From Myxococcota bacterium (GTDB taxonomy: Bacteria; Myxococcota_A; Polyangia; Nannocystales; Nannocystaceae): a stretch of DNA of 64,000 nt. How positions within the stretch are numbered: the stretch's first letter is position 1; each line of letters opens with the position of its first letter. The position numbers and the translations under genes were made by a program. The DNA lies in contig JBCCHT010000004.1 in NCBI GenBank assembly GCA_039028615.1, forward strand, positions 64,001 to 128,000, written 5' to 3'. Positions 7,485 to 64,000 of this stretch are shown piece after piece. Below the pieces are notes generated by a model that worked only from the letters and a program-made list of their open reading frames with translations, was not told where the DNA came from and made no database searches.

Positions 7485-9022
<1,538 letters not shown>

Positions 9023-9076
9023 CGCTTCGCGGATGATATCCCAAGCGCTCTCGAGTCGCGCTACGGCAACCGCTGA

Positions 9077-10123: not shown

Positions 10124-10231
10124 CGCCTTGCCGTGTTACCACCGACGGCTCTCGGCCAGCAACGGAGGAACCGCGAGCGGTGCCGCGTCAGTGGGCGGAT
10201 CCGTGATATTCAACATGGCAGAGAGTCTCCG

Positions 10232-12555: not shown

Positions 12556-12556
12556 G

Positions 12557-36678: not shown

Positions 36679-36808
36679 GCTCCGAAACTATCACCGCGGC
36701 CCCGAACCTCGATGCCTCCGAAACGGGACGATGGCGTTCGGAGGGCCCCACACTCCAACCGCTCACGAGCGATTGCGAACCTCTGGCCTCAAAGGGCCTC
36801 GGGATCGC

Positions 36809-38266: not shown

Positions 38267-38281
38267 TTTGTCAGTAGCATC

Positions 38282-39169
38282 ATGGTACGCGAACCCGTGG
38301 CATCGAGCGCGCGACATCGGCAAGCCATCTCATCCCGCGGCACGGCGCTCGTGGCCTGCCTCGCGATGCTGTGGCCGACGCTTGCTCGGGGAGCCGGCCG
38401 AACCGCGCCCGAGCCCGCGGCCGAGGCAGCGCCGAGCGCGGAGAGCGACGACATCCAGCGCGCCCGTGAACTGGCGGCCAACGGCAGCGCGCTGTACCGC
38501 GAGGGCTCGTACGCGGCAGCGATCGAGGCGTTCGAGGTCGCCTACGAGCTCGCGAAGGATCCGAACCTGCTCTACAACATCGCTCTGTGCCACGAGAAGG
38601 CGGGCGATCTGCAGGCGGCCGCCGATGCGCTCGACCGCTACCGCGCGGTCGCTCCCGCGTCCGAACGCGCGGCGCTGGTCGAACGTGCAGCGTCACTGCG
38701 CGAGCGGGCGGCCCAGCAAGCCGAGCCGGAACCCGAGCCCGAGCCGCAGCCCGAGCCGGAGCCCGAGCCACAACCCGAGCCCGAGCCCGAGCCACAACCC
38801 GAGCCCGAGCCGCTGTTCAACGGCGTCGCTTGGGGGCTGCTGGGTGTTTCCCTGGCGGGCGTGGCCGTGGGCACCACCCTCGGGGCACTGTCGCTGAGCA
38901 ACAGCGCCGAGGTCGATCGTCAGTGCAGCACGGGCGGCTCGACCCTGTGCCCCACCTCCGTCGCGGCGCCGCTCCGGGCCGCGCGCTGGCAGGCCGGGGT
39001 CGCCGATGCGTCGTTCGCCATCGCGGCCGGCTCGGCCATCGCCCTGGGCGTCGTGCTGGGCATGCGTGCCAAGAAGCGCAAAGCCAACAACGTCGCGATC
39101 ACACCGACGCTGAACGGCCTGGCCGTGCACGGCCGCTTCGGGCGACCTAGCCGTCGAGCTTCTCGGTAA
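38282..39169 (+). CDS. TPR-containing exported protein with PE-rich linker
   Basis: GSALYREGSYAAAIEAFEVAYEL..LLYNIALCHEKAGD TPR pair; two C-terminal hydrophobic segments. Confidence 0.8.
   Translation: MVREPVASSARHRQAISSRGTALVACLAMLWPTLARGAGRTAPEPAAEAAPSAESDDIQRARELAANGSALYREGSYAAAIEAFEVAYELAKDPNLLYNIALCHEKAGDLQAAADALDRYRAVAPASERAALVERAASLRERAAQQAEPEPEPEPQPEPEPEPQPEPEPEPQPEPEPLFNGVAWGLLGVSLAGVAVGTTLGALSLSNSAEVDRQCSTGGSTLCPTSVAAPLRAARWQAGVADASFAIAAGSAIALGVVLGMRAKKRKANNVAITPTLNGLAVHGRFGRPSRRASR
38723..38812 (+). repeat. Coding (EP)n/QP low-complexity repeat
   Basis: GAGCCC/GAGCCG hexamers encoding EPEPEPEPQPEPEPEPQPEPEPEPQPEPEP. Confidence 0.85.
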
Positions 39170-45041: not shown

Positions 45042-47291
45042 ATGCTCACACTTGTCCGCTCATTGATGATCGAAGGGTACACCGTTTTCCGAGACGACGC
45101 CGTTCCGCACCGGTTCTACGTGATGCCGAGCGACCCAACGATCGCGCGTGACGAAGACGGTGTCCCCATCTTCTCCCTCATCGTCTATCGCCACGACGAA
45201 GACCGCATCGCGCCCGAAGACCTCGAAGAAGATGTCGGCGGCGGCATCCTGACCTTCACCACCGAGCTCGCCGTCCCCGAGGGGGACTTCAAGAAGATCC
45301 GCAGCAAGCTCCGTGGTCTGGTCTACGGCGAGGACGCGGACGAGAGCGAGAACGACGTCGAGCTGACCTACGTCACCTTCACCAAGGGGCGGGTCCAGCT
45401 GGCCATCGCGGGTGAGCACCTGCGAGGCGACGACGAGGGCGAGAACAACGAGTTCCTCCGCACCATCGTCGGCGACGGCAAGGTCAGCGGCATCGGGGCC
45501 AACCGCAAGGCCATCATGGCCAAGCTGAGCCAGTCGGGCGCTGCCCTCATGTCTCAGCTCGACAGGCTCCGCACGTTGCCCATCAACGTCGAGTACGCCC
45601 TCGAGTTCGAGCACCGCCTCATGGGCGTCAAGATGCGCGTGTGGTGCAACATGGAGTCCTCCTACACCCTGGTACGGGAGCTGGAGGCCTACACCGAGAA
45701 GGAAGAGCGCTACGCCGACTCCGACAAGTACCACCGGCGCAGCCGCATCAAAGAGGTCACCGAGGAGTTCACCCGCAACAAGACCTGCGGCGTCGAGGTC
45801 ACGCCGCTGTCCTCCGAGATCGACAACGACACCTTGCTCGCCATGGAGAAGTTCGGCTTCGACATGCTCCAGCGCGAGATGGAGAAGATGCTCGACGCCC
45901 GCCCCGTCGACAACAACCTCCTCGAGGACACCTGGCTCTCGGACTACGTCTCGAGTTCCACCAACGACTTCAACTTCGAGCTCGACCGCAAGATGGTGCT
46001 GGCCCGCGATCACATCGCCTCGGCCAACATCCAAAACGTCATGCGCGACGTGCCCGACGAGATGATCACCTTCGTCGATCTGCGCACGGACTTCTTCAGC
46101 TTCCTGAAGGTCCCCGTGCGGGTCAACGCGAACTTCGAAGACCTGCCCATCGACTCGGTCACCGTCCACCTCACCTACACGCGCGAGCGCTTCGAGGGTG
46201 GCGGGCGCGAGGAGATCAACGAGAGCTTCAACTTCACCGACGGCTCCACGATCCAGACCTTCCTGACCTTCGCCAATCGGCTCGCCGACGTCGACTACAC
46301 GTGGTCGGCCGACGTGCACTACACCGACTCGCCCGAGACCTACACCATCACGCCCAAGAGCACGAGCCAGACCTTCCTGGTGGTCGACGTGGCCGACCTC
46401 GGGCTGCTCGACGTCGACCTCGGCCTCGGCCTGGTCGACCTCAAGACCTACCCCCGGGCCAAGGTCACCCTGCGCTACCGCTCCGAGGCACTCGGTCAGG
46501 ACTTCGAGAGCGAGATCATCCTCTCCGAGGAACGTCAGACCGCTCAGTGGACCGAGATGATCCGCGAGGTCCCGGGCGAGTACGAGGTCAAGGTCGACTG
46601 GCTGCGTGACAACGACGACATCCTCGAGGGCGAGTTCCGCAAGACCAAGGCCGACCGCCTGCGCTTCGATGCGCCCACCGAAGACACCATGAAGGTCACC
46701 GTGGTGCCCAGTGGTGACTTCAAGAAGGAAGTCACCCACGTGCTCGCGACCCTGCGCTACGAGGACAAGACCGACCCGGACAACCCCTACACCAAGGAGG
46801 AGGCCTTCGACTTCACCGACGACAAGCAGGTGCTGACCTGGTCGGTCCCCATGCGCAACTCCGAAGTGCGCGACTACACCTACCGCTACTCGGTGGTGTT
46901 CAAGGACGGCGTCGTCGAGAACGTGCCCGAAGACCCCACCCAGTGGCTCCCCGGCGAGCCCGGCTTCGTGGTGGTGGGCATCAAGTACGACGTCGAGGTC
47001 GACATCCACCCCTTCCTGCTCAGCTTCCCCGACCACGCCAAGGTGGTGAAGGTCGACCTGGGCGTGGGCGACGAGACCGACAGCTACGTCTTCAACAAGG
47101 ACGCCAAGACCACGGTCACTTGGCGGGTCCGTACGGGTACCGGGCCCGAGCCCTACTGGATGCAGGTCACCGCCTACTCCGCCACGGGCGAGACCACGGT
47201 CGGGCCCAAGCTCACCGAGCAGGTCAGCGAGTCCGTGGTGCTCAAGCCCGTCCCCGCGCCGCCGGCCGAACCGGCCGACGACGGCGAGTAG
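45042..47291 (+). CDS. Uncharacterised paralog-family protein C (749 aa)
   Basis: AAGGGA RBS; VFRDDAVPHRFYVMPSDP, SLIVYRHD, GGGILTF, PINVEYALEF, TDFF. Confidence 0.9.
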   Translation: MLTLVRSLMIEGYTVFRDDAVPHRFYVMPSDPTIARDEDGVPIFSLIVYRHDEDRIAPEDLEEDVGGGILTFTTELAVPEGDFKKIRSKLRGLVYGEDADESENDVELTYVTFTKGRVQLAIAGEHLRGDDEGENNEFLRTIVGDGKVSGIGANRKAIMAKLSQSGAALMSQLDRLRTLPINVEYALEFEHRLMGVKMRVWCNMESSYTLVRELEAYTEKEERYADSDKYHRRSRIKEVTEEFTRNKTCGVEVTPLSSEIDNDTLLAMEKFGFDMLQREMEKMLDARPVDNNLLEDTWLSDYVSSSTNDFNFELDRKMVLARDHIASANIQNVMRDVPDEMITFVDLRTDFFSFLKVPVRVNANFEDLPIDSVTVHLTYTRERFEGGGREEINESFNFTDGSTIQTFLTFANRLADVDYTWSADVHYTDSPETYTITPKSTSQTFLVVDVADLGLLDVDLGLGLVDLKTYPRAKVTLRYRSEALGQDFESEIILSEERQTAQWTEMIREVPGEYEVKVDWLRDNDDILEGEFRKTKADRLRFDAPTEDTMKVTVVPSGDFKKEVTHVLATLRYEDKTDPDNPYTKEEAFDFTDDKQVLTWSVPMRNSEVRDYTYRYSVVFKDGVVENVPEDPTQWLPGEPGFVVVGIKYDVEVDIHPFLLSFPDHAKVVKVDLGVGDETDSYVFNKDAKTTVTWRVRTGTGPEPYWMQVTAYSATGETTVGPKLTEQVSESVVLKPVPAPPAEPADDGE

Positions 47292-47294
47292 GCC

Positions 47295-49436
47295 ATGCTC
47301 GACCTCTCCCATCCCGTGCGTCGGATGGCCGGGGTCGACCTGGCCCAGGACACCTCGCTCCGCGACACCTGGTACATCCTGCCCGCACCGCCCTCGGTGG
47401 TGCGGGTGGATGGCGTGCCGCAGGTTCGGCTGCTGAAGATCGTCCGCGATGGCGAGCTGAGCCAGGGTGACCTGCACCTGCGGGTCTCGCTGGCGTGGCC
47501 CTCCGCGGCGCTCGAGGAGGCCAAGACCCTGCTCTCCGAGGAGGCGCACCGCGAGGTCACCCTACTGCCGCTGCCCGTAGTCGCAGCCGAGACCGAGGTC
47601 ATCTTCGCCGGCCGCGAGCCGGTCGACGATGGCGAGATTTCCCCCTTCGAGGTCCGCCGCTACGGCCAGACGCAGCCGCGACTCGATGCCCCCCACGTGG
47701 CCGCGCTGTCGACCACCCTCACCGCCGACGGCACCCGGCTCTTCGACGCCGCGCTGCGCGAGGGCGGTGCCCCCATCGGGGTGACCTACCGGCTGCAGAC
47801 CGAGGCGCTGCGGCCCGGCATGCAGCTGGCCGCCCGGGTCGACTGGGGCCGAACCTACGACCACTTCTCGTCGCATACCCGCACGGGAGGCTTCGTCTAC
47901 ACCGAAGACGTCCGCGAGCTAGTCGAGGAACTCGTCGAGAACAAGGTCGTGCAGATCACCGCGGTGACCGCCCTGGGCGAAGATGGCGAGGCCGGCACCG
48001 AGGCGCTCAATACCGCCTTGGCGTGGGTCCAGCGACAAGTGGTCGAGCGCTTCTGTACCCCGGTCATGGAGCTGCGGCGCGAGCCGGCTCGGGTCTCGCT
48101 GGGCACGGTGGGCGAAATCTTCAAGGTCGGGCACGCCCACAAGGTCAAGAAGCTCACCCAGATCGAGCATGCGGTGGCCGAGATGCGGCTCGACGTCGCC
48201 ACCGTGGTCAAGCGGACGTTGTTGACCCAGACGCACCTCGCCGACCTGCTCGGGGACGTGAACGTCGACGAACACATCGAGCAGGCCGAGCCCGACCATC
48301 CCTTCTTCAAGCGCTTCGACCTGCGGGTTCGCACCGCGCGGGCGCTCAGCGACCTGGGCGCCACCGAGTTCGCCGGCGAGTGGCACTACGGCGATCGCCA
48401 GGTGCCCCTGCGGCTGACCGCCGAGGAACCCGAGGCCGAGGTCTCCACCTGGCGCGACGAGTCGGACGAGGCCAAGTGGGCGCTGGTCGGCCAGGTCACC
48501 TTCGGCGACGAGGCAGCCGTGCACGCCACCGAGTCGGTCACCCTGCCCCCCATCGAGGCCGAGGGGCACGAGCTCACCGTCGACCTGGCCGCGCTGCTGG
48601 GCCTGCACACCCTCGAGGTGACCACGACCCTCGATCCCGAGCGGGTGCTCGCCACTCGGGCCCGGGTCCAGCACATGCGGGGCGAGGATGTTCAGGGCGA
48701 GCGCGAGCTGGTGTTCACCTCCGAAGACCGGGCCACCGCCACCTTCGCCGGGGTCCAGATGGGCGATCGTTTCGAGGCCAGCTGGAGCTGGCTGCTCGCC
48801 TCGGGCCGCATGCTCGAGGCCTCCCCCGTCACCGTCGACACGCGGCTGCTGCGAATCCCTCGCCCCTTCGCCGAGCGCTTCACCGTGCAGCTCATCAGCG
48901 CCGACGACTGGACCGACCTCGAGCGGCTGATCGTGCACGTCAGCAAGACGGTGGATGGGCCCGGACACACCGTCATCTTCGACGGACCGGGGCAGTTCCG
49001 CGCCGTGGCTCTCGACCTGCCCGACCCCTCCGATCGCAGCTTCCAGTACCGCGTGCAGCGGGTGTGGAGCGACGGACGCGAACAGGAAGATCAGTTCGTC
49101 CAGACCGATGTTCCCGTGGTGCTGGTCGGCGGCACGCCCATCGACCGCCTGGTCGTCGATTTCGAGCCCCTGGGCTCGGAGCTGACCACGGCGGGCATCC
49201 ACATGGTGAAGATCGAGCTGATGTACATCGACGTCGCCAATCAGCTGCGGCACCAGGGCGAGCTGGAGATTCGGGCCATCGCCGACCGGCCCCGTTGGGA
49301 CGTGCAGCTGGCCGACCCCACCCGGCGCAACTACGAGTACCGCATCACCACCTACCGGCAGTCCGGTGAGGTCCAGGTCGGCGAGTGGAAAGAGACGGCC
49401 GAGAGGCTCGTCGTGGTGCCCATCGTGCCGGAGTAG
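47295..49436 (+). CDS. Uncharacterised paralog-family protein D (713 aa)
   Basis: 3 nt after C; WYILPAPP, LTADGTRL, PIGVTYRLQTEALRP, HPFF. Confidence 0.9.
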   Translation: MLDLSHPVRRMAGVDLAQDTSLRDTWYILPAPPSVVRVDGVPQVRLLKIVRDGELSQGDLHLRVSLAWPSAALEEAKTLLSEEAHREVTLLPLPVVAAETEVIFAGREPVDDGEISPFEVRRYGQTQPRLDAPHVAALSTTLTADGTRLFDAALREGGAPIGVTYRLQTEALRPGMQLAARVDWGRTYDHFSSHTRTGGFVYTEDVRELVEELVENKVVQITAVTALGEDGEAGTEALNTALAWVQRQVVERFCTPVMELRREPARVSLGTVGEIFKVGHAHKVKKLTQIEHAVAEMRLDVATVVKRTLLTQTHLADLLGDVNVDEHIEQAEPDHPFFKRFDLRVRTARALSDLGATEFAGEWHYGDRQVPLRLTAEEPEAEVSTWRDESDEAKWALVGQVTFGDEAAVHATESVTLPPIEAEGHELTVDLAALLGLHTLEVTTTLDPERVLATRARVQHMRGEDVQGERELVFTSEDRATATFAGVQMGDRFEASWSWLLASGRMLEASPVTVDTRLLRIPRPFAERFTVQLISADDWTDLERLIVHVSKTVDGPGHTVIFDGPGQFRAVALDLPDPSDRSFQYRVQRVWSDGREQEDQFVQTDVPVVLVGGTPIDRLVVDFEPLGSELTTAGIHMVKIELMYIDVANQLRHQGELEIRAIADRPRWDVQLADPTRRNYEYRITTYRQSGEVQVGEWKETAERLVVVPIVPE

Positions 49437-49624: not shown

Positions 49625-51967
49625 ATGCTCAATCTACTGGACCGTCAGACCATCGAGGACCTCACCGTCTACCGCGACGACCAGGACGTTCGGAAGTTCT
49701 ACGCACTGCCCGATACGCCCACCATCGACAAAGATCGTCAGGGACGCCCGAGCTTCCTGTTCGTCAAGTACGTCGATGACCGCCGCAACGTCGCCGAGGA
49801 AGACGAGAAGAACGGCGCCTACACCCAGATGCGCGCCACCCTGGGCATCGACGCGGAGCGGACCGAGCGGGTCATGAACCACCTGCGCGAGCAGCTGGTC
49901 GAAGAAAAGCGCAAGGGCATCAAACCCTTCGGCAAGAAGATCCAGAGCACCGAGCCCCTGCTCGCGCGGCCCGACTGGACCGAGGGCGCCGTGACGCTGT
50001 CGACCTTCTCCGCCAGCGAGGACGGCATGGTGCGCTCGGTGGCGGGCAGCCAAAAGCCCGACCTCTCGGGCGACCTGGGGGCCGCGTTCGCCCTCGAGCT
50101 CGACCCGGCCGGCGCCGCGATCTTCTGGGACGCCTTCGAGTCCGGCAACGTGCCGATCGTCCTGTCCTACGAGCTCACCTACAAGGCGCGGGTCCCTGCC
50201 GCCAAGATGGTCATTCACGCCGAGCGCGAGAAGGTCCAGGAGGCGATCTACACCCATACCCGCCCCTACGTGTTCAAGCCCGCCCGCAAGCGCTACGTGG
50301 CCCTGGCGCGGCAAGTGATCAACCGCGGCGTCATGGCCACGCTGCGGCAGACCCACGGCAAGCTGCTCAAGTTCATGGTGCCGCGCAAGCAGATCAAGAC
50401 TGCGGTCACCAACACCATCGACGTGAAGATCACCTTCGGCGAGGGCGGAGGCGACACCGAGGTCCGCGAGAAGCTGATGGAGATCGCCAGCGATATGCTG
50501 TCGAACAACATCATTCCCGCCTTCTTCGCCGGCAACCAGGTCCTCGACCAGATCACCGACGTCGAGGAGGGCGAGGACCTGCTCGAGCTCAAGGACGACA
50601 TCGAAGAGTCGCTCGAGCCCTTCCACATCGAGCTGTCCGAGGAGGTCGCGGTCGACCGCAACTCCAACCCCAGCGGCATCATCCAGATGCTGCTCACCGA
50701 AGAAGAGCGCCAGCTCGCGTTCCGCGAGGTCCCGCTCTCCGACCCCTTCTTCGAGCAGCTCGACGTCACCACCCGCACCGCCGGGGTCCAGTTCGAGCGC
50801 GATGGCATCGACTCGATCCACGTGTTCCTCGAGTACGACCACACCGACGCCAAGACGGGCGAGCGGGTGTTCTTCAACGACGACGCCGTGCTCACGGGCG
50901 ACGACGAGGAGCTCACCTTCCACGTCGAGCGACTCGCCCGCGACGCCGACGGCAACGCGATCACCCACTATCGCATCCGCACCGAGATCCACTACCGCGT
51001 CGACTTGCCCAAGAGCGTCGGTCGCTGGGTCAAGCAGCAGCAGCGCCAGGTCATCGTCGCGCCGCGGGCCCTCGGCGCCATCCGGGTGGAGCTCAAGCTC
51101 ACCGCCCGGCCCGAGACGGTCGAGGCGGCCGAGGTGCACCTGGCCTATCGCTCGGGCGCCGGTCAGGTCATCGAGCGCACCATCACGCTGACCGGCGACG
51201 AGCCCAACCAGTCGTGGTTCCAGTTCACGGGCGACTTCGAGGAGCAGGGCATCGAGCCCACCTACCGCTACCGGGTCACGTGGATCCTGCCCGGCGGTGC
51301 CCGCCTCGAGAGCGAGACCCGGGCCGAGACCCGCGACGTGCTCGAGATCGGCAGCCCCTTCACCACCCCGCTCGAGTTCACCGTGCGCCCCGAGGGCAGC
51401 ATGGAAGGCGTCGCCGAGATCGCGGGCGAGCTGCACTACCACGACACCCGCCACGACTACAGCATCGTGCGCAGCTTCAGCCTGACCAAGCTCTCCTCCG
51501 AGGAGGTGGTCAACGTCCCCGCCATCGAGGGAGGCCCTCGCACTGCCACCGTCGAGGGGCGCATCGTCTACGAGGACGGCGCCCACGACGAGCTCACGGC
51601 GCGAGAGGTCGAGCCGGGCACCGTATGGCTCGGCGTGTCGGTGCGGCAGTGGCTGACGATCTACGTGCAGCCCTTCGAGGCCGACTTCGAAAACGACCTC
51701 CGCATCGCGGCGCTGCTCATCACCTATACGCACGCCGACGGTCGGGTCGAGCGCAGCCCACCGCTCAACTTCCTCAAGAACGGCCCCAACCCGACCATGG
51801 ACACCACCGAGTGGAAGGTCGCACTGTCCGAGGGAGACCCGCAGACCTTCTCATACACGGTGCGCTACATCGGCTACGACGGCCGCAGCGACAACGTCGC
51901 CCACGACGACGTGTCCGACACCATGATCTGGCTCAAGCGCCCTGCCGCGCCCGACTCCCCCACCTGA
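49625..51967 (+). CDS. Uncharacterised paralog-family protein E (780 aa)
   Basis: AAGGGA RBS, ATG 49625; VYRDD..KFYALPDTP, FLFVKY, LDPAGAAIF, PIVLSYELTY, DPFF. Confidence 0.9.
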   Translation: MLNLLDRQTIEDLTVYRDDQDVRKFYALPDTPTIDKDRQGRPSFLFVKYVDDRRNVAEEDEKNGAYTQMRATLGIDAERTERVMNHLREQLVEEKRKGIKPFGKKIQSTEPLLARPDWTEGAVTLSTFSASEDGMVRSVAGSQKPDLSGDLGAAFALELDPAGAAIFWDAFESGNVPIVLSYELTYKARVPAAKMVIHAEREKVQEAIYTHTRPYVFKPARKRYVALARQVINRGVMATLRQTHGKLLKFMVPRKQIKTAVTNTIDVKITFGEGGGDTEVREKLMEIASDMLSNNIIPAFFAGNQVLDQITDVEEGEDLLELKDDIEESLEPFHIELSEEVAVDRNSNPSGIIQMLLTEEERQLAFREVPLSDPFFEQLDVTTRTAGVQFERDGIDSIHVFLEYDHTDAKTGERVFFNDDAVLTGDDEELTFHVERLARDADGNAITHYRIRTEIHYRVDLPKSVGRWVKQQQRQVIVAPRALGAIRVELKLTARPETVEAAEVHLAYRSGAGQVIERTITLTGDEPNQSWFQFTGDFEEQGIEPTYRYRVTWILPGGARLESETRAETRDVLEIGSPFTTPLEFTVRPEGSMEGVAEIAGELHYHDTRHDYSIVRSFSLTKLSSEEVVNVPAIEGGPRTATVEGRIVYEDGAHDELTAREVEPGTVWLGVSVRQWLTIYVQPFEADFENDLRIAALLITYTHADGRVERSPPLNFLKNGPNPTMDTTEWKVALSEGDPQTFSYTVRYIGYDGRSDNVAHDDVSDTMIWLKRPAAPDSPT

Positions 51968-51980
51968 AAGACGAAACGCC

Positions 51981-54785
51981 ATGGCAACGGCCAACCGCAA
52001 CACGTTCATGCGCAGCCTCGCCAGCCGCGAGCTGCTGGTCGATACCCGGCGCCGCGAGGTCGCGCACGCGGCTGCGATGGTCTCGGCCACGTCGAGGATC
52101 GCGTCTCATGTGCTCCCGTGGATGAAGATCATCGAGCAGCTGCCGGTCTTCGAAGAGTCCTCGCGCCCCAAGGAGACCAGCAAGACCATCAAGGACATCC
52201 ACGGCAAGCAGTGGATGACGGTCCGCTACTGGCTCGATGCCGCCGACCCCGTCGTGCGCTTCAACCACGACGGCCTCACCGTCGAGCTGCAGCCGTTGTA
52301 CGGCCAGGGGCCCGTGCCCACCGTGCAGGGCCAATTCCTCCCCGTCATCGGGTGGAAGGCGACGATCGAGGGCATCTCGGGGGCGCGCAAGCGCACCATG
52401 ATCGCGAGCTGGCGCGCCGACGACAACGGCAAGTACAAGCTCACCCTGTCGTACGACTTCGAGAACGACAACGACCGCGAGCTCGTACGCAGCGCCATCC
52501 GTGGCGATGGCATCACCATCAAGACCTCGTGGAACCACCGGGCGAGCTATCGCAAGCCGACCTCCGCGACCTTTACCGGCACCAACCAGCCCTCGGGTCG
52601 CCCCACGGGTACCGGAACGGGGGGTGGGCGCACGATGGTCAGGCCTCGTGCCGCCGCCACGATACCCACGGCCACGCTCGCCACCGCCGCGACCCGGGTC
52701 GCACGGCACGGCGCCGGTTTTCGCTTCCCCGTGGGCGTCGCGGGGCTCGTAGGCGCACCTTCGCCGGTCCGACGACGCGCGAGGAAGGTCTCTGCGAAAA
52801 AAGTCTCTGCCAAGAAAGTCTCTGCGAAAAAAGTCTCTGCCAAGAAGACCGCGAAGAAGACCACTCGACGGCGGCGACGGCCGACGCGGCGCAACCCGCC
52901 CCCCCCCCGTCAGCCGCAGACCCCACCGACCCCCTACACGTTCACGCAGACCAACTCGGTCCCCATCAACGTCGCCGATCCCAGCCACGAGATGTGGCAG
53001 GACGGCCCCTCGCCCTGGAAGCCCTTCGCGCCGGCCCATAGCCGCACGATGTACTACCGCGCGACGGGCCGACCGGCGGAGTTCGAGTTTCTGCCCAGCG
53101 AGTTCCGGCTCGGCTTCGACATCACCAAAGACGTCCCCGCCCTGCTGCCGTTCGTCTACAACCCGCAGAACGACGGCGGCACGCTGCAAGAGGACAAGCG
53201 GCGCATCGAGATGCGCATGATGGCGACGCCGCACGTCGAGCCGCAGCAACGCGAGGAGCTGCGCGCCTGGATCCAAGATCGCGAGTCGGTCGAGCTGGCG
53301 TACCTGGTGCCGCCCGTCGTGCAGGGTCGCTTCGTCATCGACGTCGCGCCTCAGGGCGCCACCATCCTCGAAGAGGACGAGACGGTCGAGCTGGCCGGGC
53401 TCTTTTGGGCTGACTTCGACTTCCCGCTCGAGTCCTGGGCTCCGAACCTCGAGATGATCTCGCAGCCGGGCGGCGGCGTGGTCGGCAAGATCTTCCTCGA
53501 CATCCTGCCCGACACCGAAGGCAGCGACGTCAGCGTACCGGTGAGGCTGAGCCTCTCCGATCTGCACGCCGACGTCGTCGAAGTGCGCCAGGGCCAGCCC
53601 GATTCCGACGGCGTCCCCCGGCACTTCTTCCTGCGGAATCGACTCCAGCGACCCGTACAGCTGGACGCGCCCACCATCTATCTCGCCGCGCAGGCCACCA
53701 ATGCCGCGCTCCCCACCGGCGTGCGCAAGGGTCAGCCGGTCGGGCCCTTCGCCCCCCAGCTGGGCCCCGGTGAAGAACGCAAGGTGCACGTGCAGCCCCA
53801 ATCCGGGGAGCACGTGTGGAATACCCTCGTCGTCGACCTCGGTCGCGTCAGCGTCACCACTCCCGACGAGGGCTGGACCGACACCATCAACGTCAACGCC
53901 TCCGATGGTCAGGCGGTGTACCCGGTCACCATCCGGGCGGTGAACCTCGGCGACAGCGCGCAGCCCGTGCCGGAGTACGACTCCACGTGGGTCTCGCTCC
54001 AGCCCCTGCAGGGCACGCCCGCCGATCCTCCCGACGGCCGCCTCGAGCGGGGCACCAAGGAGTGGTCCACCCGCATGTGGCTCGGTCTGTCCGAGCTGTG
54101 GGACCTCGAACAAGACCCCGCCAAGGCCAAGGTCCACGCGGTCGAGCTCCGCAGCGACTACGCCGACCTCGAGGGGCTGCCCCAGCGCATCTACGGCGCC
54201 GCGTCCAACGTCACCGTTCGGGTGCTCAGCACCGAGCGGCCGGACTCGAAGTACATCCTCCGCGACGAGGACCGCAACATCCTCGAAGAAGGCCTCGACC
54301 GCGCGACCACGCTGTCCCGCATCGAAGCGCGGCGCGCCGCCGACCAGGGCTGGACGCTCAGCGTCGTTCCGGTTCCGGGCCAGCCCGCGGAAGAAGAGAA
54401 CGACGACGACGACGATCGCAACGCCACCAACGACGGCGACACCACCACCGACGACGGCAACGACACCACCACCGACGACGGCGATCCCCCCACGGAGACG
54501 CAACCCGCCGGGCCGTCCATCGTCATCAACCCGATCACGTTGGATTTCAACGTGCTCCAGATGGTGTTCGTCACCCTCACCATCGGCGAGGGCGATGGTT
54601 CCGTCACCCGCACCTTCCGCTTCGACGCTGGCTCCACCGCCGCACAGGAGTGGGCCCCCGCCCGAGAGCCCGGCACCCCCGTGCGCTCCAAGACGGTATT
54701 CATGTTCAAGGACGGCACCAACCACATGACGCCCACGACCCAGGTCGACGGCGACATGGTGTTGGTGATGATGCCCGACACCTGA
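51981..54785 (+). CDS. Divergent cluster protein F (934 aa) with basic low-complexity insert
   Basis: 13 nt after E; internal FEFLPSEFRL..PALL resembles the family N-terminal motif; C-terminal domain resembles the family repeats; KVSAK repeats. Confidence 0.85.
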   Translation: MATANRNTFMRSLASRELLVDTRRREVAHAAAMVSATSRIASHVLPWMKIIEQLPVFEESSRPKETSKTIKDIHGKQWMTVRYWLDAADPVVRFNHDGLTVELQPLYGQGPVPTVQGQFLPVIGWKATIEGISGARKRTMIASWRADDNGKYKLTLSYDFENDNDRELVRSAIRGDGITIKTSWNHRASYRKPTSATFTGTNQPSGRPTGTGTGGGRTMVRPRAAATIPTATLATAATRVARHGAGFRFPVGVAGLVGAPSPVRRRARKVSAKKVSAKKVSAKKVSAKKTAKKTTRRRRRPTRRNPPPPRQPQTPPTPYTFTQTNSVPINVADPSHEMWQDGPSPWKPFAPAHSRTMYYRATGRPAEFEFLPSEFRLGFDITKDVPALLPFVYNPQNDGGTLQEDKRRIEMRMMATPHVEPQQREELRAWIQDRESVELAYLVPPVVQGRFVIDVAPQGATILEEDETVELAGLFWADFDFPLESWAPNLEMISQPGGGVVGKIFLDILPDTEGSDVSVPVRLSLSDLHADVVEVRQGQPDSDGVPRHFFLRNRLQRPVQLDAPTIYLAAQATNAALPTGVRKGQPVGPFAPQLGPGEERKVHVQPQSGEHVWNTLVVDLGRVSVTTPDEGWTDTINVNASDGQAVYPVTIRAVNLGDSAQPVPEYDSTWVSLQPLQGTPADPPDGRLERGTKEWSTRMWLGLSELWDLEQDPAKAKVHAVELRSDYADLEGLPQRIYGAASNVTVRVLSTERPDSKYILRDEDRNILEEGLDRATTLSRIEARRAADQGWTLSVVPVPGQPAEEENDDDDDRNATNDGDTTTDDGNDTTTDDGDPPTETQPAGPSIVINPITLDFNVLQMVFVTLTIGEGDGSVTRTFRFDAGSTAAQEWAPAREPGTPVRSKTVFMFKDGTNHMTPTTQVDGDMVLVMMPDT
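52785..52844 (+). repeat. 15-bp coding tandem repeat, (KVSAK)x4
   Basis: AA(G/A)GTCTCTGC(G/C)AA(A/G) x4, followed by KTAKKTTRRRRR. Confidence 0.9.
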
Positions 54786-54796
54786 GGCCGACGCGG

Positions 54797-57002: not shown

Positions 57003-59174
57003 TCACAGCTTGATGACGAGCAGCGGGCTGGTGGACTCGCCCGCGCGCAGCTCGTTCTCGCCTTCGATGCCGATCGAGGTCACCGTGTACGAGTAGGCGA
57101 GCTGCCCGTCTTCGTCGAGCGGGAGATCGACCGTGGCCTGGGGCGAATCGGCGGCGGTCATGAGCACGGCGAAGGGCTCGTCGTCGACCATCAGGTCGAT
57201 GCGCACGGCGAGCGCATCGCCGAAGGCCCCCAACCGCGCGATGCGGATCTGCTTGGTGCGCCGCGGCTTGGGCCCGAGCACGACGACGGGGCGCTCGAGC
57301 GGCTCCCAGTCGTCGGACTGCTCGACGGTGCCGTCGGCGAATTGGATCAGGCGACTGACCTCGAAGGCCCGCTTCTGCGGATCGAGCAAGGGAACCTGCA
57401 CCGCGACGGCCTCGGGCGGGGAGCCGGGGTCGAAGCGCAGGGTCTTCTCGAAGACGTGGTCCTCGTCCATGTAGCGTAGGGCCACCTCCCCCCACAGCAC
57501 GGCTTGCCAGTCGAGGTTGGGGAGCACTCGAACCTCGAGCACGTCGCGGAAGGGCCCGAGCGCGACGAGGTGATCGCCCTCGAGGTCCTCCCACTTGCCT
57601 TCCTGGGGTACGCCGTCGCCGTCGAGCCAGTCGATGCGGACCTGGACCGGGATCCGGCCCTCGCCCGCGGGCTGGCGTACGCGCCAGGTGGTCTCGGGCG
57701 TGGCCTCGTCGAGCACGATCTCGTGGCTGAGTTCGGTGTCGGGCACGGCGAGCGACACCCGGAAGCCGGTGACCGAGCCCGCCACCAGCGGTCCGGCCAC
57801 CAGGCGGACGGCGCGGGAACGGAAGTGGTCTTGGGGCTGCACCACCAGCTGACGACTGGTGCTCTCGAAGGGGCCGACGGAGATGGAGCCTGGTCCCTGC
57901 CCGTTCGTATCGTCGAAGCTCAGATCCACCGACCAGCGGTAGGTGTCGTCGCGCGGGCCATCCATCGCATCGGTGAACACGGCCGGCTCGACCGCGTCCG
58001 CGTTGAACGCAAAGGAGGTCCGGTCTTCGCCGTGGGCGAGGTGCACCACGACCTCGCGCAGGTCGGGATAGGAATCGAAGTCGATGGCCGGACGCAGCGT
58101 CACCCGGAGGTGATCGAAGAAGTCGTCGTCGGTGTCGATCTCGAGGACCTTGGGGGTCTCGCCCTCTTCTTCGTCCCACTGGTTGGTCAGCAGGCCCACG
58201 CAGGTGTGGATGAGCGACACGGCGGAGCGGCCGCTCCACTCCATGCGGAAGGTCTTGAGCTCGTCGGTGCGCTGGTACTTCAGCTTCCCCACGAACATCG
58301 CCGACGACGCGGTCGGCTCGCCGTCGCCGAGGATGGAGGTCAGCATGTTGGCCAGGGCCCCGCCCTGACTACCCGCGGTGGGGGATGGCGGCATGCCGGG
58401 CTGGAAGAAGTCCTGGGCGACCCGCATGCGCACCAGCTCATCGACCAGCTGTCGCTGCCACTTGTGGTCGGCTTCGGAGCTGAACTCGGTGATCTGGATG
58501 TCGATGTAGCCGTTCTCTCGCAGCCACGCGAGCTCGGCGTCGAGCTCGACGCGGACCGCCGAATACTCGAAGCCGATCGAGGCGGCGAAACGATCGTAGA
58601 CCCGGTCGTAGTCCATCTTGACCGTGGCGTGCAGCGCGGGCAGCAAGCCGTCGAAGCCGAACTCGTAGGTCATGCCGGCCGGGACCGCGCCGCCGGCCAC
58701 CGCCTGCTCGATGAGGGCCGCGCCCTCGGCCGTGAGGTCCAGAGCAAAGGTCGCCCGGTGCGGAGCGGCGGGCGAGACCGGGACTTCGCTGCGGGCCACC
58801 GTGATCATGCCGTCGTCACGGTTGTCGCCGATGAGCAGCTGCGCCTTGCCGCTGAGGAACAGGGGCTGGGACACGCGAGCGTTCTGGCGCCCGGCGAGGC
58901 GGCTCACCTCCGTGCGCAGCGCCTCGAGCTCGTTGTCGGCGATCGAGGCGTCGGAGGTCAAAAAGGCCATGCCCGCGCCGACCGCCCGGGTGGGATCGAG
59001 CTCGGGGTTGTCGGTCAGGTCGCGCCGATACTTGTAGAGCACGAACTCCGGGCCCTCTTCGCCGCGGGAGAGGCGAGCCCGCGGGGGCAAGGCGTAGAAC
59101 TGATCGGGGTCCTCGTGGTCTCGCAAGACCGTGGTCCCGCGCACCGAGTAAAAGGGCGGTTCGAGAGTGATCAC
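57003..59174 (-). CDS. Uncharacterised paralog-family protein G (723 aa)
   Basis: VLRDHEDPDQFYALPP, FVLYKYRRD, LTAEGAAL, PAGMTYEFGFDGLLPA, DDFF. Confidence 0.9.
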   Translation of the reverse strand: MITLEPPFYSVRGTTVLRDHEDPDQFYALPPRARLSRGEEGPEFVLYKYRRDLTDNPELDPTRAVGAGMAFLTSDASIADNELEALRTEVSRLAGRQNARVSQPLFLSGKAQLLIGDNRDDGMITVARSEVPVSPAAPHRATFALDLTAEGAALIEQAVAGGAVPAGMTYEFGFDGLLPALHATVKMDYDRVYDRFAASIGFEYSAVRVELDAELAWLRENGYIDIQITEFSSEADHKWQRQLVDELVRMRVAQDFFQPGMPPSPTAGSQGGALANMLTSILGDGEPTASSAMFVGKLKYQRTDELKTFRMEWSGRSAVSLIHTCVGLLTNQWDEEEGETPKVLEIDTDDDFFDHLRVTLRPAIDFDSYPDLREVVVHLAHGEDRTSFAFNADAVEPAVFTDAMDGPRDDTYRWSVDLSFDDTNGQGPGSISVGPFESTSRQLVVQPQDHFRSRAVRLVAGPLVAGSVTGFRVSLAVPDTELSHEIVLDEATPETTWRVRQPAGEGRIPVQVRIDWLDGDGVPQEGKWEDLEGDHLVALGPFRDVLEVRVLPNLDWQAVLWGEVALRYMDEDHVFEKTLRFDPGSPPEAVAVQVPLLDPQKRAFEVSRLIQFADGTVEQSDDWEPLERPVVVLGPKPRRTKQIRIARLGAFGDALAVRIDLMVDDEPFAVLMTAADSPQATVDLPLDEDGQLAYSYTVTSIGIEGENELRAGESTSPLLVIKL

Positions 59175-59196: not shown

Positions 59197-61377
59197 TCAG
59201 GTCAGGGGAAAAACGGCGATGAGCGCGGTGGTGGTCACCGGGTCGAGCTCTTCGCTCGTGCCGTCCATGGCGATCTTGGTCAGCTGATAGGACCACTGCT
59301 TGACCTCGGGGTCGCGCTGGGGGAAGCGCCACTTTTGGGGCTGAGCCACCGATCGGATCAAGCGCTCTTCCTCGACCTGCACGTCGTTGTCGGGGTCCTC
59401 GTATTCGAAGCGAACCTTGATGCCCAGCAGGCCGGCCGAAGCGAGCGTAGCCCCCAGGATCATCAGCTGCACCTCGCGGAGCTGGGCGATGCCCGTGCCG
59501 ACCACCAGCCGCGTCCCCATCGAGGGCAGCCACTCCCCCTCTTCGACCTCGTTGAGCATGCTGTGCGAGGTCACGCGGTAGGACCACCCTCGCTCCTCGG
59601 GCTCGGGCAGCGGCACCGACCAGGTCGCGAAGGGTTTGTCTCGGTCGAGCACCAGCGTCTGGACCTCGTCCTCGTTGGAGTCGAGGCGAAGCTCGACGAT
59701 GAGCCGCGCGACCTCGGTGCCGAACATCGCCGAGCCGAGCACCTGCACGTCGAGCACGTCGGGATGCGGATGACCAACCACCATCGTGCCCGGCTCCACC
59801 GTCTCCCAGTCGCGGGCCGTCTCGTCGCCGGACTCGTCGACGTAGCGCACCCGAGCCCGCACGCCGACCGCCTCCTCGGCGCCGACCCGAATGCCCATGG
59901 TGGCCTCGCGCCCCGTGGCGGAAAGCTCGTGAGTTCGCACGATGGAGCCGCCCGCCGCGGTATCGAAGGCGACGTCGACGATGACGGTGGGGTAGTCCTC
60001 GAAGGGCACCCCGAGCGCCACCACGCGTAGATCGACGCGGCGGAACAGCTCGCGCGGATCGACCCGCAGCACCCGGTCGTCGGTCTTCCACTGCGCCTGC
60101 TCGAGCGCCGCCGCCGGCCCGTCGTCGGAGGCGGGCAAGTGCGCCGTATAGGCCACGCCCACCTCGGGCCCCTGCTCGGCGTCGAACCAGAACTTCACCT
60201 GCGCCCGGGGCTCGGCCGCGGTCAGCAACAGCCGCTCCTCGCGTTCACCGTAGCTCATGCGAACTTCGACGGACTCGATGCCTTCTTTGGCCATGTCGAC
60301 GGCGCAGCCGACATCGAACTCCATCTCGGGGTTGGGACCCGGCTCGACCTCGAGCACGATGTCGTCGAGGTCGACCGAGCGATCCTCTCCCCACAAGCCG
60401 GTCAGGATGCCCTGCGGAGCCAGGGTGAGGTGCTCGGCCCGAGCGGCCCGCATCTCCCAGGTCAGCGTCTTGAGCTCGTTCCGATCGACCGAGCGCAGGC
60501 TATAGGTGACGGCGAACAGGCCCACCACGTCGCCGACCGCCCGAGAGATGGCGTCGAGGTTGCCTTCGGTGTCGACCCCGGTCGGCGCCTGGCCCAGGGT
60601 CGGCCGAAAGAACTCCTCCAAGACATGGTCGAGCACTTGCTTGACCGCCGCGTCGTAGGCCGCGGTGTGCTGGTCCTCGGGTACGAGGTGATCGACCTCC
60701 ACCTGCACCTGCTCGCTGCGGATGAGGTCTTCGAGCATCGCCCCGATGTCGACCGCGAGCAGCAGCTTGCCGCCGTGGAGCCGGTTCTCGTAGTACTCGT
60801 AGACGTCGCGCCAGCGGGCGACCACCCGGGCCCGCAGCGCGGGGCGGATGCCCTGGGTGCGCAGCTCGTAGACCACGGCCACGGGCACATCACCGCCCTG
60901 CAGCGCCGCCTCGGCCACCGAGGTGCCCTCGGGGGAGAGCACGGCCATGAACGACGCGGTCTGGTGCCCGTACAGCGAAGGCGCCACGGCGCCGAGGATC
61001 CGCTCGGTGAGGATGGACTCGCCTTCTTGATCGTTGGCGCGGTCCATGACCACCAGGCGACACTGCCCCTGGTCGGCGGCCACAGGCACCAGCGTGGGAA
61101 GCTCGTCGAGATCGAAGCGCGTCAGCAGCCGTGATCGCAGGCTCGACAGGACCTCCTCGTCGACCCGCAAGTCGACCATGAACGACAGCAACCCGCCGCC
61201 GAGCACCTGGTGGAGCTCGGGGTCGAGCCGATACTTCACCAGCCGCAGCTCGGGCTCGTCGTCGCGCCAGACCAGCGAGGGCCGGTCGGGCAGGTAGTGG
61301 AAGAGCCCCGGATCAGCGTGATCGGGGAACAGGGTTACCCCCAGGGCGGTGAGTGCCGGGCGGCCGAGGTCGATCAT
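59197..61377 (-). CDS. Uncharacterised paralog-family protein H (726 aa)
   Basis: LFPDHADPGLFHYLPDRP, GGGLLSF, LSPEGTSV, PVAVVYELRTQGIRPA. Confidence 0.9.
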   Translation of the reverse strand: MIDLGRPALTALGVTLFPDHADPGLFHYLPDRPSLVWRDDEPELRLVKYRLDPELHQVLGGGLLSFMVDLRVDEEVLSSLRSRLLTRFDLDELPTLVPVAADQGQCRLVVMDRANDQEGESILTERILGAVAPSLYGHQTASFMAVLSPEGTSVAEAALQGGDVPVAVVYELRTQGIRPALRARVVARWRDVYEYYENRLHGGKLLLAVDIGAMLEDLIRSEQVQVEVDHLVPEDQHTAAYDAAVKQVLDHVLEEFFRPTLGQAPTGVDTEGNLDAISRAVGDVVGLFAVTYSLRSVDRNELKTLTWEMRAARAEHLTLAPQGILTGLWGEDRSVDLDDIVLEVEPGPNPEMEFDVGCAVDMAKEGIESVEVRMSYGEREERLLLTAAEPRAQVKFWFDAEQGPEVGVAYTAHLPASDDGPAAALEQAQWKTDDRVLRVDPRELFRRVDLRVVALGVPFEDYPTVIVDVAFDTAAGGSIVRTHELSATGREATMGIRVGAEEAVGVRARVRYVDESGDETARDWETVEPGTMVVGHPHPDVLDVQVLGSAMFGTEVARLIVELRLDSNEDEVQTLVLDRDKPFATWSVPLPEPEERGWSYRVTSHSMLNEVEEGEWLPSMGTRLVVGTGIAQLREVQLMILGATLASAGLLGIKVRFEYEDPDNDVQVEEERLIRSVAQPQKWRFPQRDPEVKQWSYQLTKIAMDGTSEELDPVTTTALIAVFPLT

Positions 61378-61393: not shown

Positions 61394-63700
61394 TTAGAGT
61401 TCGTCGAGCACGGTCGCGGCGGGGATGGGCAGCAGGCTGCGGTCCCACCGGGTCCAGCGGCCTTCTTCCATGTCGCCCGATTCCAGGATCGCGGTGAGCT
61501 TGTACTCGAACGAGGCGGCTTGGTCCTCGCGCACGATCATCGAGTGGGTGAAGCGGGTCTCGCCCCCGGGCTCGAGCAGTTGGCTGTGGGTCTCCTGGAT
61601 CACGCCGTCGGGCGGGTCGCAGCGCAGGTCGACCTGCAGGCCGAGCAGGCCGGCGGAGGCCAGGTTGCCCAGCACGATGACCCGAACATCGAAGCGCCGC
61701 CCCGCGGGCAAGACCGCGATGAGCTCCTCGTCGGTGGTGACGCGAGGACGATTGACCGCCTCGCCGCCCGCCGCGGGCACCAAGCTGATCGCATAGGAGT
61801 ACTCGCGCCGCTCGGGATCGATGATGGGGATGTCGACGGTCTGCGTGGCGAACTGCGGCCCGATGATCTCAACCGCCTTGCGCACGACCAGGTCGTTGTC
61901 CTCGTCGTCGTACTCGAGGTGCACGAGCACCCGCTGCACCTGGGTCGGGTCGACCTGCGGCACGATGGTCACCGCGAGGCGATGCGGGAACGGGTCGCCG
62001 ACGTACAGGTGCCGGTTTTCGCTGGTGGTGGGCTCGCCGTCCACCTCGCTGCCGTTTTTCAGGTGCCAGCGGTTCTTCACGGTGTAGGCCCGCGGCGCCT
62101 CGGGGGGCAGCCGCACCAGCCACCGCTCCCGCTCGCTGTCCTCACGGATCACCATGGTCCGCTCGTCCTTGAAGTCGGAGGCCTCGTGCTCGTAGGTCAG
62201 GGTCGTCTCGATCTGATCGACGGTCGCCCAGTCCACCACCCCGGGCTCGACCCACACCGAGAGCATCTCGACGTCGGAGGCGGGGTGCACCACCTGCGCC
62301 CGGCTGGTGGAGACCCGCCACGGCGTCTTTTGGTGGTTGTCGAGCGACGCGACCTCCTCGGAGCCCCCGAAGAAGTACTCGAGCTGATAGCGGTAGGAAA
62401 AATCGTCGTCGTCGCGGAAGGCCTGGAAGGTCTTGGGCTCGGCGTCCGTGGCCGAGAAGGTGGCCGTCCACGACTCGCGGGGGTCGTCTTCGGTGCCGCC
62501 GTACTGGATGTGCAGCAGCGCCGTCTCGAGGTCGAGCCCCTCGAAGTCGGCGGCCGTCTGCGCCTGCACGGTCATCGTCTTGAAGAACTGGTCGTCGAGG
62601 TTGATCTCGCGGATGTGCTTGGCCTTCTCGCTGCCCGTGAGCAGGGCCGAGAAGAAGCCGTTGGGCGCGTGGGTCCGCGTCTCCGGGGCGGCCACGTCGT
62701 AGTCGTAGGTGACCGTCTTGAGCTCCTCCTCGTGCTTGTACGCGAGCTCGAGCCCGACTTTGACCTTGCCGCCGCTGCTCTGGCCCTCGTTCATCCTCTC
62801 GCTCGAGGCCACCATGTCGCCGACTTGATCCATGGCGTCCTCGAGCGAGGGCACCTGCTGCTGGCTCATGCGCGGCTTGAACAGCTCCTTGAGCAGCGTC
62901 TCCTTGAGCAGCGTCATGGCCTGCCGCTCCATCTCGTTGACGTCGGAGCCCTCTTGCTGGCGAATGATCTCGACCTCGATCGCCCCTTGCTCCTTGAGCC
63001 AGGACAGCGTGGCCCCGATGTCGACCCCGACCTCCACCCCGTCGGCCTCGACCCCCACGTTGAGCTTGGCCTCGAAGCCGTCGTAGACCCGCTTGAGGTC
63101 CGCCCTGACCTTGACCGACAACGCCGGCCGCAGGCCGCTGAACTCGAGCTCGTACATGACCCCGATGGGCGACAGCTCGGACTCGTAGGCCTCCTCGAGC
63201 AGCGTGGCCGCCCCGGGCGTGAGCGCCAGCGAGAAGATCGCCCGCTGGTCCTGCATGAGCGACGGAGTGGCCGTGCCCAGCACCTTGCGAATGAAGCGAC
63301 TGCCCTCGGGGGTCGACTCGGCGCCCGACTGAGCATCGAGCGCCAGCACCTTGACCGTGCCCTCGGTGTACAAGACGGGCACCAGGCTGATGGGCCCCGA
63401 ACCGGGAGGCATGCGCGACTGGAGCTCCCGCTTGATCTTCTGCTTGGTGTCGTCGGCGATCCCGCAGTCGACCCCGAAGAGCAAAAAGCCGCCGCCGAGC
63501 TGGTCACGCTCGACGGCGCTCATCGAGCTGGAGCTGTCGAGGGCGTGCCGGTACTTGAGCAGCAGTAGGTGGGGCTTGCCGTCTTCGTCGCGGGTCAGCC
63601 GCGGCGGCCCGGCCAGGTAGTGGAAAAGCGTGGGAACGGCGTGATCGCGGAAGATCACGACGTTTTCGATCTCGTAGAAGGGCGTCTCGAAGGTCAGCAT
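61394..63700 (-). CDS. Uncharacterised paralog-family protein I (768 aa)
   Basis: IFRDHAVPTLFHYLAGPPRL, GGGFLLF, PIGVMYELEFSGLRPA, DQFF. Confidence 0.9.
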   Translation of the reverse strand: MLTFETPFYEIENVVIFRDHAVPTLFHYLAGPPRLTRDEDGKPHLLLLKYRHALDSSSSMSAVERDQLGGGFLLFGVDCGIADDTKQKIKRELQSRMPPGSGPISLVPVLYTEGTVKVLALDAQSGAESTPEGSRFIRKVLGTATPSLMQDQRAIFSLALTPGAATLLEEAYESELSPIGVMYELEFSGLRPALSVKVRADLKRVYDGFEAKLNVGVEADGVEVGVDIGATLSWLKEQGAIEVEIIRQQEGSDVNEMERQAMTLLKETLLKELFKPRMSQQQVPSLEDAMDQVGDMVASSERMNEGQSSGGKVKVGLELAYKHEEELKTVTYDYDVAAPETRTHAPNGFFSALLTGSEKAKHIREINLDDQFFKTMTVQAQTAADFEGLDLETALLHIQYGGTEDDPRESWTATFSATDAEPKTFQAFRDDDDFSYRYQLEYFFGGSEEVASLDNHQKTPWRVSTSRAQVVHPASDVEMLSVWVEPGVVDWATVDQIETTLTYEHEASDFKDERTMVIREDSERERWLVRLPPEAPRAYTVKNRWHLKNGSEVDGEPTTSENRHLYVGDPFPHRLAVTIVPQVDPTQVQRVLVHLEYDDEDNDLVVRKAVEIIGPQFATQTVDIPIIDPERREYSYAISLVPAAGGEAVNRPRVTTDEELIAVLPAGRRFDVRVIVLGNLASAGLLGLQVDLRCDPPDGVIQETHSQLLEPGGETRFTHSMIVREDQAASFEYKLTAILESGDMEEGRWTRWDRSLLPIPAATVLDEL

Positions 63701-63709: not shown

Positions 63710-64000
63710 TCAGTCGGTGGGGGGCGACAAGACGAGCACTTGGGAGCGGGCCTGCACCCAGTCTCCTCGAAGAACTCCTACGTCGGAGGTGATGAAAATC
63801 TGCCGATACGAATACGCGGGGTCGTCGGCGGTGGCGCTGCGGAAGGTCCAGGTGCTCTCGGGGGCGCCGGGGCGGAAGCTCAGCAGCTTGCTCCCCGCGT
63901 CCGGCCCGGCCGGCTTGAGCTCGACCTGCGCCATTCGCAGGTTGTCCATCGCGTCGAGCCGGAACGGGACCACGGTGACCGCCGCCATATAGGGATCGCG
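63710..64000 (-). CDS. 3' end of a further cluster gene (J), truncated by the window edge
   Basis: Frame open to the window end; DPY..VTVVP..VELK..W..YSYRQIF..G..W..VLVL matches the family's terminal repeat. Confidence 0.75.
   Translation of the reverse strand, partial: RDPYMAAVTVVPFRLDAMDNLRMAQVELKPAGPDAGSKLLSFRPGAPESTWTFRSATADDPAYSYRQIFITSDVGVLRGDWVQARSQVLVLSPPTD

Follow-up and report, generated by a model that had tools for sequence, protein, structure and literature searches.

Large refolding beta-pores are known from few superfamilies. The complement membrane attack complex is formed by several homologous subunits with a graded ability to enter the membrane, and the MACPF signature is Y/W-G-T/S-H-F/Y-X6-GG. 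In the CDC, domain 3 is a bent sheet with a helical bundle at either side and domain 4 is a sandwich with an undecapeptide; aerolysin-type toxins have a fold with a single insertion loop. In the helical bundles of CDC and MACPF proteins a beta-alternating sequence forms helices between sheet strands, and the hallmark of CDC and CDC-like proteins (CDCL) is an F/Y-F/Y-Xn-YGR motif with a downstream glycine pair (PMC7527733). The CDCL of Bacteroidota, as far as PMC11169675 describes them, comprise one to three adjacent homologous genes with divided roles, lipoprotein signals, the YGR motif, protease involvement and bacterial targets, and their helical bundles refold into two transmembrane hairpins each. 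Bacterial gasdermins are homo-oligomers without signal peptide, activated by proteolysis, which refold into a giant beta-barrel with four strands per protomer and a palmitoylated N-terminal cysteine (PMC10153256). The system described here is a cluster of paralogous genes from a Nannocystaceae (Myxococcota) genome of 12.3 Mb and high GC; the window is the whole stretch of 64,000 nucleotides analysed (G000:C4:64001-128000), and gene I, near its end, is the member studied in most depth.

The best explanation, given a probability of about 0.6, is that related subunits of this family co-assemble and that their helices refold into three strands per subunit, forming an arc or a barrel pore in the membrane. 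The original prediction had proposed, as a speculation, a multi-component pore analogous to MACPF/CDC proteins with the repeats as stalk or binding domains. Covariation, an apolar band on three strands and the presence of one subtype per locus favour refolding segments in a multi-component assembly; MACPF/CDC membership was not upheld, and the pore itself is predicted.

Fold and covariation of the inserted module

The AlphaFold2 core model of the gene I product (pLDDT 84.4, pTM 0.76) agrees with the full-length model (pLDDT 88.8, pTM 0.60), both having an Ig-like base sandwich with an inserted module. The module starts with a strand (residues 180-201), two helices (202-216 and 228-237), a strand (241-247) and a helix (252-273) followed by FFxP, and goes on with another helix (about 286-300) and, after a stretch of low confidence that ends at 328, a strand (329-344). 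The packing of helix 252-273 is backed by the covarying pairs V196-A261 and V198-L265. The 'V.A....(V/I)Y' motif, first read as a helix, is divided in the models, the 'V.A' part belonging to strand 180-201 and the helix beginning only at 202. Because beta-type alternation is modelled here as helices between sheet strands, the layout is that of the CDC/MACPF helical bundles. Generic sandwiches align over residues 13-367 or so, and among the matches listed the base comes structurally closest to the luminal domain of TMEM106B (Z 5.5, rmsd 3.9, 122 aligned), in a tie with such sandwiches.

Every string that the original prediction quoted for the alternating segment (region 1) was found in its paralog (I, A, G, H or D). 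The same segment is indeed polar in B and C and has the long basic insert in E, and FFxP is followed by a second variable region (region 2). The variability is one between subtypes and not random, length and chemistry being constant within each subtype. Among 132 homologs region 1 comprises 33-115 residues (34 in 67 of them) and region 2 comprises 22-234 (about 460 in locus L032), and large tip inserts are found mainly in the I/A subtype. In the 67 homologs with modal region-1 length the beta-moments of the two strands were 1.61 and 1.55, against 0.83 and 0.95 in shuffles (SD 0.06; 0 of 500 shuffles reach them), and 56 have an aromatic residue at the hairpin tip. The alternation exceeds chance but is not diagnostic, several ordinary sandwich strands of I scoring as high or higher, so it proves little alone. 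Among the inserts, P0017 (I subtype) carries a Baseplate_J-like domain at residues 272-370 (E 8e-6) inside the region-1 tip, and P0076 and G000:C2:561732-565016 have several hundred residues inserted in region 2, which look OmpA-like by eye from a motif that Pfam did not confirm.

Couplings were computed by pseudo-likelihood on 451 sequences, with a subset test on 482. They recover the modelled sheet (197-244, 199-242, 197-333 and 199-331) and run on past it (203-327, 207-323, 213-317 and 212-229). When 674 registers were ranked for residues 201-217, the antiparallel sums 530, 439 and 441 came out highest (means 2.33, 2.14 and 1.87; SD 0.35), all extending the pairing of the modelled sheet. 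Sum 530 was first in all four sets (the full 482, 395 without I-like members and both random halves), and sums 441 and 439 ranked second to fourth. The segments scored 2.0-2.3, compared with 1.5-2.3 in control strands and at most 1.2 in control helices, and sum 530 was sharp, with 0.1 at the neighbouring sums, a one-step drop that would be unlike helix packing. On these strand-like scores and the sharp sum 530, the residues apparently exist also as a three-stranded ladder, b2-b1-b4, and a second beta-ladder state is very probable. No ladder was found for residues 270-285 (best 1.19), and the rest of region 2 aligns poorly. Instead of two refolding hairpins, one full hairpin and one extra strand were detected; covariation and hydropathy agree on this hairpin plus one strand. 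An ordinary soluble multidomain family, with short surface or buried strands behind the alternation, would fit the equal or higher beta-moments of other I strands and the overall confidence of the monomer model (pLDDT 88.8), but it leaves unexplained the ladder covariation through modelled helices, the coincidence of three strands and the fixed subtype sets across phyla, and is very improbable.

To trace the apolar band, 224 of 234 sequences were followed outward, starting at anchors 199, 242 and 331. On all three strands one face begins with a polar stretch of some ten residues and continues apolar, and extending register 530 brings the apolar residues of the three strands onto one face, over about the width of a membrane, in I, A and G. 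In I the band is formed by F209-A211-L213-V215-V217 (strand 1), L232-A230-I228-V226-V224 (strand 2) and Y321-L319-L317-V315-V313 (strand 3), where region 1 holds it at 209-234 with a DG turn at 220-221 and the predicted third membrane strand, residues 311-328, is of low confidence in the monomer model. Small or polar residues occupy the opposite face, the aromatics F209, W234 and Y321 stand at the upper edge, and the tips are hydrophobic. The band face is opposite to the one that the upper sheet buries against helix 252-273. TMH2 of CDC-like proteins, used as control, has the same level, spacing and parity switch.

Paralogs I, A and G have the full band; H and D have part of it, and B, C and E lack it. 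Of the 23 clades with at least three members, 16 have positive outward-minus-inward hydropathy on each of the three strands; seven clades are strongly apolar (including I/A and G), nine intermediate (H, D and the adaptor clade) and seven polar (B and C). Insertion into a bilayer as an arc or a barrel is the likely prediction. A soluble hetero-oligomeric tube, ring or cage displaying enzymes, with the band buried between subunits or lining a lipid- or prenyl-binding tunnel, would tolerate the large polar tip inserts and the seven of 23 clades without apolar band, and would suit the TMEM106B neighbour, tied with generic sandwiches as it is, and the prenyltransferase-like genes that recur beside the family. 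It is nevertheless improbable, given a band of about membrane width with a small or polar reverse, aromatics at the upper edge and hydrophobic tips, equal in level and parity to the CDC-like control.

Comparison with known pore-forming families

YGR was identified in 6 of 132 cores and the glycine pair in 4 of them, whereas 22 of 24 controls have YGR; the CDC undecapeptide core WEWW and the MACPF signature were found in 0 of 132, and neither PF01823 nor PF01289 gave a Pfam match with the core paralogs. A G-x-R is present at the sheet bend of the module. The TMH2 half of 24 CDC-like proteins aligns co-linearly with residues 197-341 of I at Prob 14 and E 0.002, and the score, 27.4, exceeds all 120 block shuffles (maximum 23.2). 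CDC homology by profile was rejected as a candidate, with Prob 3.5 for a deeper profile and Prob 0.5 (E 0.12) for an independent set of eight. The MACPF profile gave Prob 0.1-0.2 with the family, whereas CDC against MACPF scores 80. The family is not filed as a CDC/MACPF member because the profile match vanished and the defining motifs are missing; that it may work like a CDC or a complement pore is kept as an analogy. A very distant, circularly permuted MACPF/CDC protein, with region 1 as TMH2 and region 2 as a degenerate TMH1 moved behind it, would be compatible with the best explanation and would account for the TMH2-half alignment above every shuffle and for the G-x-R, but the fall in Prob from 14 to 3.5 and 0.5, the rarity of YGR and of the glycine pair and the low MACPF Prob make it quite improbable.

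Foldseek of the core model against PDB had no match at E 0.001; the VIA wide search had a best Z of 5.5 and none at 8, and a second VIA search returned antibody domains only. MACPF, CDC core, gasdermin and aerolysin chains were absent among the core-model matches listed, which the base sandwich dominated and which therefore say little on these folds, and no RNA holder was found among the entries listed. Above TM 0.5 in the ESM Atlas, the matches listed for the core and for residues 188-342 were unnamed clusters only, and the full-length model had generic tandem Ig-like matches. Homodimer prediction of the core was uninformative, at a score of 0.07 (mark 0.42). By sequence, the Pfam scan of the eight core paralogs assigned no family, with one sub-threshold match, NCBIfam had sub-threshold matches only, no PADLOC model, type VI secretion system (T6SS) or phage-tail family in the libraries scanned was matched by the subunits, and the PDB search gave nothing below E 0.8.

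Likeness to the CDC consists of the strand-helix-loop-helix-strand-helix layout and the TMH2-like hydropathy spacing (PMC7527733), and of repeat 3 aligning with domain 4 of pneumolysin (Z 7.0, rmsd 3.3, 88 aligned). This Z is tied with pilotins, teneurin and PepT2 domains, the neighbours of repeat 3 lying at Z 6.8-7.6 (PepT2, pilotin, teneurins and domain 4 of pneumolysin and desulfolysin). Differences from CDC are the missing motif, glycine pair and undecapeptide core, and four repeats, mutually homologous (repeat-pair Prob 97-99.5), instead of one. With the CDCL (PMC11169675) are shared adjacent homologous genes with presumably divided roles, helical bundles predicted to refold, proteases and possibly bacterial targets. 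Differences from them are the number of subtypes (about 4-11), the lack of signal-like starts, the detection of one hairpin and one strand, the four repeats and the putative cargo adaptors. The gasdermin likeness (PMC10153256) comprises the missing signal peptide, refolding to a beta-barrel, predicted here, and proteases co-encoded in other loci, whereas no N-terminal cysteine is conserved in the family consensus, the first Cys of I being residue 79. Like the complement complex the family has homologous subunits with a graded band, implying ordered assembly; unlike it, MACPF signature and profile match are lacking.

Subtypes, loci and neighbouring genes

The family is large, present in many bacterial phyla and without annotation. 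A profile built on the eight window cores found 2,362 representatives (clusters at 50% identity) at E 0.001, 1,553 at 1e-10 and 524 at 1e-30, named 'hypothetical' wherever a source name was seen. A single scan recovered 59 loci, each a stretch of at most 23 kb with 1-9 family genes, and their record titles name Myxococcota, Acidobacteriota, Proteobacteria, Actinomycetota, Chloroflexota, Cyanobacteria, Bacteroidota and Bacillota. Occurrence is patchy: of 31 relatives 4 have the family, and in a phylum sample 8 of 301 genomes do. The core profile search identified 18 family genes in the source genome, 8 scattered and 10 in the main cluster, of which 8 lie inside the window and J and K just past its end; the gaps between G, H, I and J are 9-22 bp. 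The nearest ortholog found in genomes (75%) is in Myxococcales record L002. A literature search of titles and abstract starts found no description of the family, which subscription papers and supplements could hold.

Viral contigs gave 47 pattern matches and 0 confirmed relatives. The sole strong viral fold match of the core model in BFVD is A0A7S7YF07 of Medusavirus stheno (417 aa, uncharacterised; E 1.3e-6, prob 1.00, TM 0.30, rmsd 17), whose identity the literature search did not recover; going by this model comparison, a distant relative may be present in an amoeba-infecting giant virus. An unnamed 589-aa cluster of the ESM Atlas (2,122 members, mostly Bacteroidota) has TM 0.57 to the core and 0.60 to the inserted module, and the superfamily may be larger than sequence searches indicate.

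The FastTree of 234 cores (duplicates L060, L067 and L068 left out, gappy rows dropped) resolves clades with mostly one gene per fetched locus, in conserved order, and such loci of fixed order occur in many phyla. Clade 0 is an exception, since 8 of 23 loci have it twice, and so are I and A, which share one clade. Ordered hetero-assembly is fairly likely. In minimum counts among the 59 loci, one locus type comprises F1 (15), X600 (12), a caspase (10), a Trp_DMAT-like gene (10) and a DxDD-type gene (9), another a papain-like gene (10) with PT310 (9), and a third F2 (7) with subtilase cargo (6); the papain-like and DxDD-type assignments follow sequence patterns, catalytic in the former. By profile, X600 (Prob 98) and F1 (Prob 90) are divergent family members and F2 a weak one (Prob 30). 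In PDB no sequence match was found for the prenyltransferase-like or the DxDD-type neighbours. The ends of type 2 loci (L032:16966-17943, L059:14331-15179 and relatives) carry a Trp_DMAT-like gene (E 2e-5, just under the cut-off) and a gene whose DADDTA motif is invariant, and lipid or prenyl modification of subunits or cargo is possible.

A gene with the cargo domain lies within 600 bp of 9 of 11 clade-5 genes, compared with 4 of 215 others. Common to the cargo genes beside clade 5 is an unnamed N-terminal domain, and the C-terminal parts are subtilase (S8), PG-binding, murein endopeptidase M74 or unassigned domains. Neighbours of family genes served as seeds for the cargo profile, and its sole unseeded match in the genome, C8:274285, lies on a contig without family genes. 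The main cluster itself lacks cargo and protease genes; cargo-domain neighbours are found at four scattered paralogs of the source genome, and protease genes (caspase, subtilase or papain-like) in other loci, caspases in at least 10 of 59. VgrG-effector systems are orphan adaptor-effector pairs of polymorphic toxin systems; similar here are one main cluster and scattered adaptor genes beside different enzymes with a shared N-terminal domain, and different is that no T6SS or phage-tail family matches the subunits. Delivery of cargo to a foreign target is tentative.

By hydropathy and lipobox heuristics rather than a dedicated predictor, 1 of 211 full-length homologs has a signal-like start, and no cargo does. 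These starts would suit a pore formed from the cytoplasm in the inner membrane of the producer, as a protease-triggered suicide or a holin-like exit for cargo hydrolases, and so would the caspase and subtilase neighbours, which match PADLOC models of their kinds, the patchy distribution (8 of 301 genomes) and the proteolytic activation of bacterial gasdermins (PMC10153256). Yet no PADLOC model is matched by the subunits, four tandem Ig-like repeats would be typical of surface-binding proteins and 5-11 different subunits are elaborate for self-lysis, which leaves this explanation unlikely.

Beside scattered family genes are a hemopexin-repeat protein, a PLAT plus metalloprotease protein and a phosphoesterase (G000:C6:40185-41690, C30:38711-40612 and L069:1925-5410), candidates for further cargo without the shared N-terminal domain. 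Of two orphan F-like genes (G000:C3:437276-439858 and C35:79698-83909), one adjoins a papain-like peptidase gene, by eye, and the other is fused to repeated tryptophan-rich propeller-like units. A weak CDC-like gene, G209:C39:106255-107172, lies less than 20 kb from a family cluster, which may be chance.

The features of the cluster are listed in Table 1. A Ser/Thr kinase with RCC1 repeats (about 54790-56995, plus strand) stands between F and G, and a kinase and binding-protein block (36091-41084) between A and B; both are likely later insertions because they are absent at the same places in genome G004. A FAD-binding gene on the opposite strand (G000:C4:129721-131085) splits the cluster between J and K, likewise in G004. 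At 4749-19765 of the window two paralogous FAD oxidoreductases surround a GAF sigma-54 activator and a polyprenyl-synthase-like gene (by eye), adjoining a kinase-AAA protein; this is a possible terpenoid or carotenoid locus.

Table 1. Members of the family in the window and parts of the gene I product (window positions).
Feature	Position	Strand	Description
Paralog I	61394..63700	-	768 aa; core and four beta-sandwich repeats; fully apolar band
I residues 1-190	63131..63700	-	Ig-like base sandwich, completed by residues 340-367
I residues 191-201	63098..63130	-	Sheet strand b1, ladder anchor
I residues 202-240	62981..63097	-	Region 1; helix-loop-helix in model; predicted to refold into hairpin
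I residues 241-247	62960..62980	-	Sheet strand b2
I residues 252-273	62882..62947	-	Helix against sheet face opposite apolar band; FFxP at its end
I residues 274-328	62717..62881	-	Region 2: variable linker and helix, then predicted third membrane strand
I residues 329-344	62669..62716	-	Strand b4; pairs along b1 and its upper continuation
I residues 375-768	61397..62578	-	Four homologous beta-sandwich repeats, ~95 aa each
Paralog H	59197..61377	-	726 aa; band partly polar
Paralog G	57003..59174	-	723 aa; band fully apolar
Paralog J, 3' end	63710..64000	-	Whole gene G000:C4:127710-129953; subunit with very short region 1
F	51981..54785	+	Divergent relative; base-sandwich-like region, no aligned hairpin module
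Paralog E	49625..51967	+	Long basic insert in region 1; no band
Paralog D	47295..49436	+	Weak band
Paralog C	45042..47291	+	Region 1 polar
Paralog B	41726..44092	-	Region 1 long, polar
Paralog A	33673..36084	+	Subtype of I (46% identical); Ser/Pro insert at hairpin tip; fully apolar band

Proposed assembly and its meaning

In the proposed assembly, related subunits would associate side by side, and in each of them the helical region 1 and the loose end of region 2 would refold into three long beta-strands that insert into the membrane as an arc or a barrel pore. The hairpin-less or polar J, F, B, C and E would nucleate or cap the assembly, the partly polar H and D would prime the membrane, and the fully apolar I, A and G would span it, as in complement. 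The repeats may be stalks or receptor-binding arms, a co-encoded protease may trigger the complex or be carried by it, and adaptor paralogs may recruit enzymes such as subtilases and a murein endopeptidase. The whole would be an antibacterial weapon on another cell, released by lysis or by some other route, which is the weakest step.

Several points weigh against this explanation. Membrane activity is a prediction from covariation and hydropathy, and that the apolar face would look to lipid rather than to the lumen is taken from CDCs. Clades are related, so that their counts are not independent trials, and the covariation controls include no external known pore former. Three strands per subunit require a parallel seam between subunits, for which the offset 91 signal is modest (mean 1.4), could be transitive and fades in half-sets. 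Some I-subtype members have more than 100 polar residues at the hairpin tip, once with the Baseplate_J-like domain, which would be hard to push through a bilayer. Finally, access to a foreign membrane is unexplained, since 1 of 211 homologs is signal-like.

At its fullest the explanation is an undescribed superfamily in which 5-11 homologous subunits form an ordered barrel with three strands each, on a scaffold unrelated to MACPF, CDC or gasdermin and with swappable adaptors loading hydrolases; in this extent it is doubtful. If these proteins form pores, theirs would be a new architecture, in which each subunit gives three strands and the subtypes are many and fixed, and bacteria would have a counterpart to the ordered assembly of complement with more components than the CDCL pairs. 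The proposed register pinpoints individual residues. For predators and competitors the system may be a modular route for enzyme delivery and, if the proposal is true, these undescribed complement-like machines would be a new bacterial protein-delivery system.
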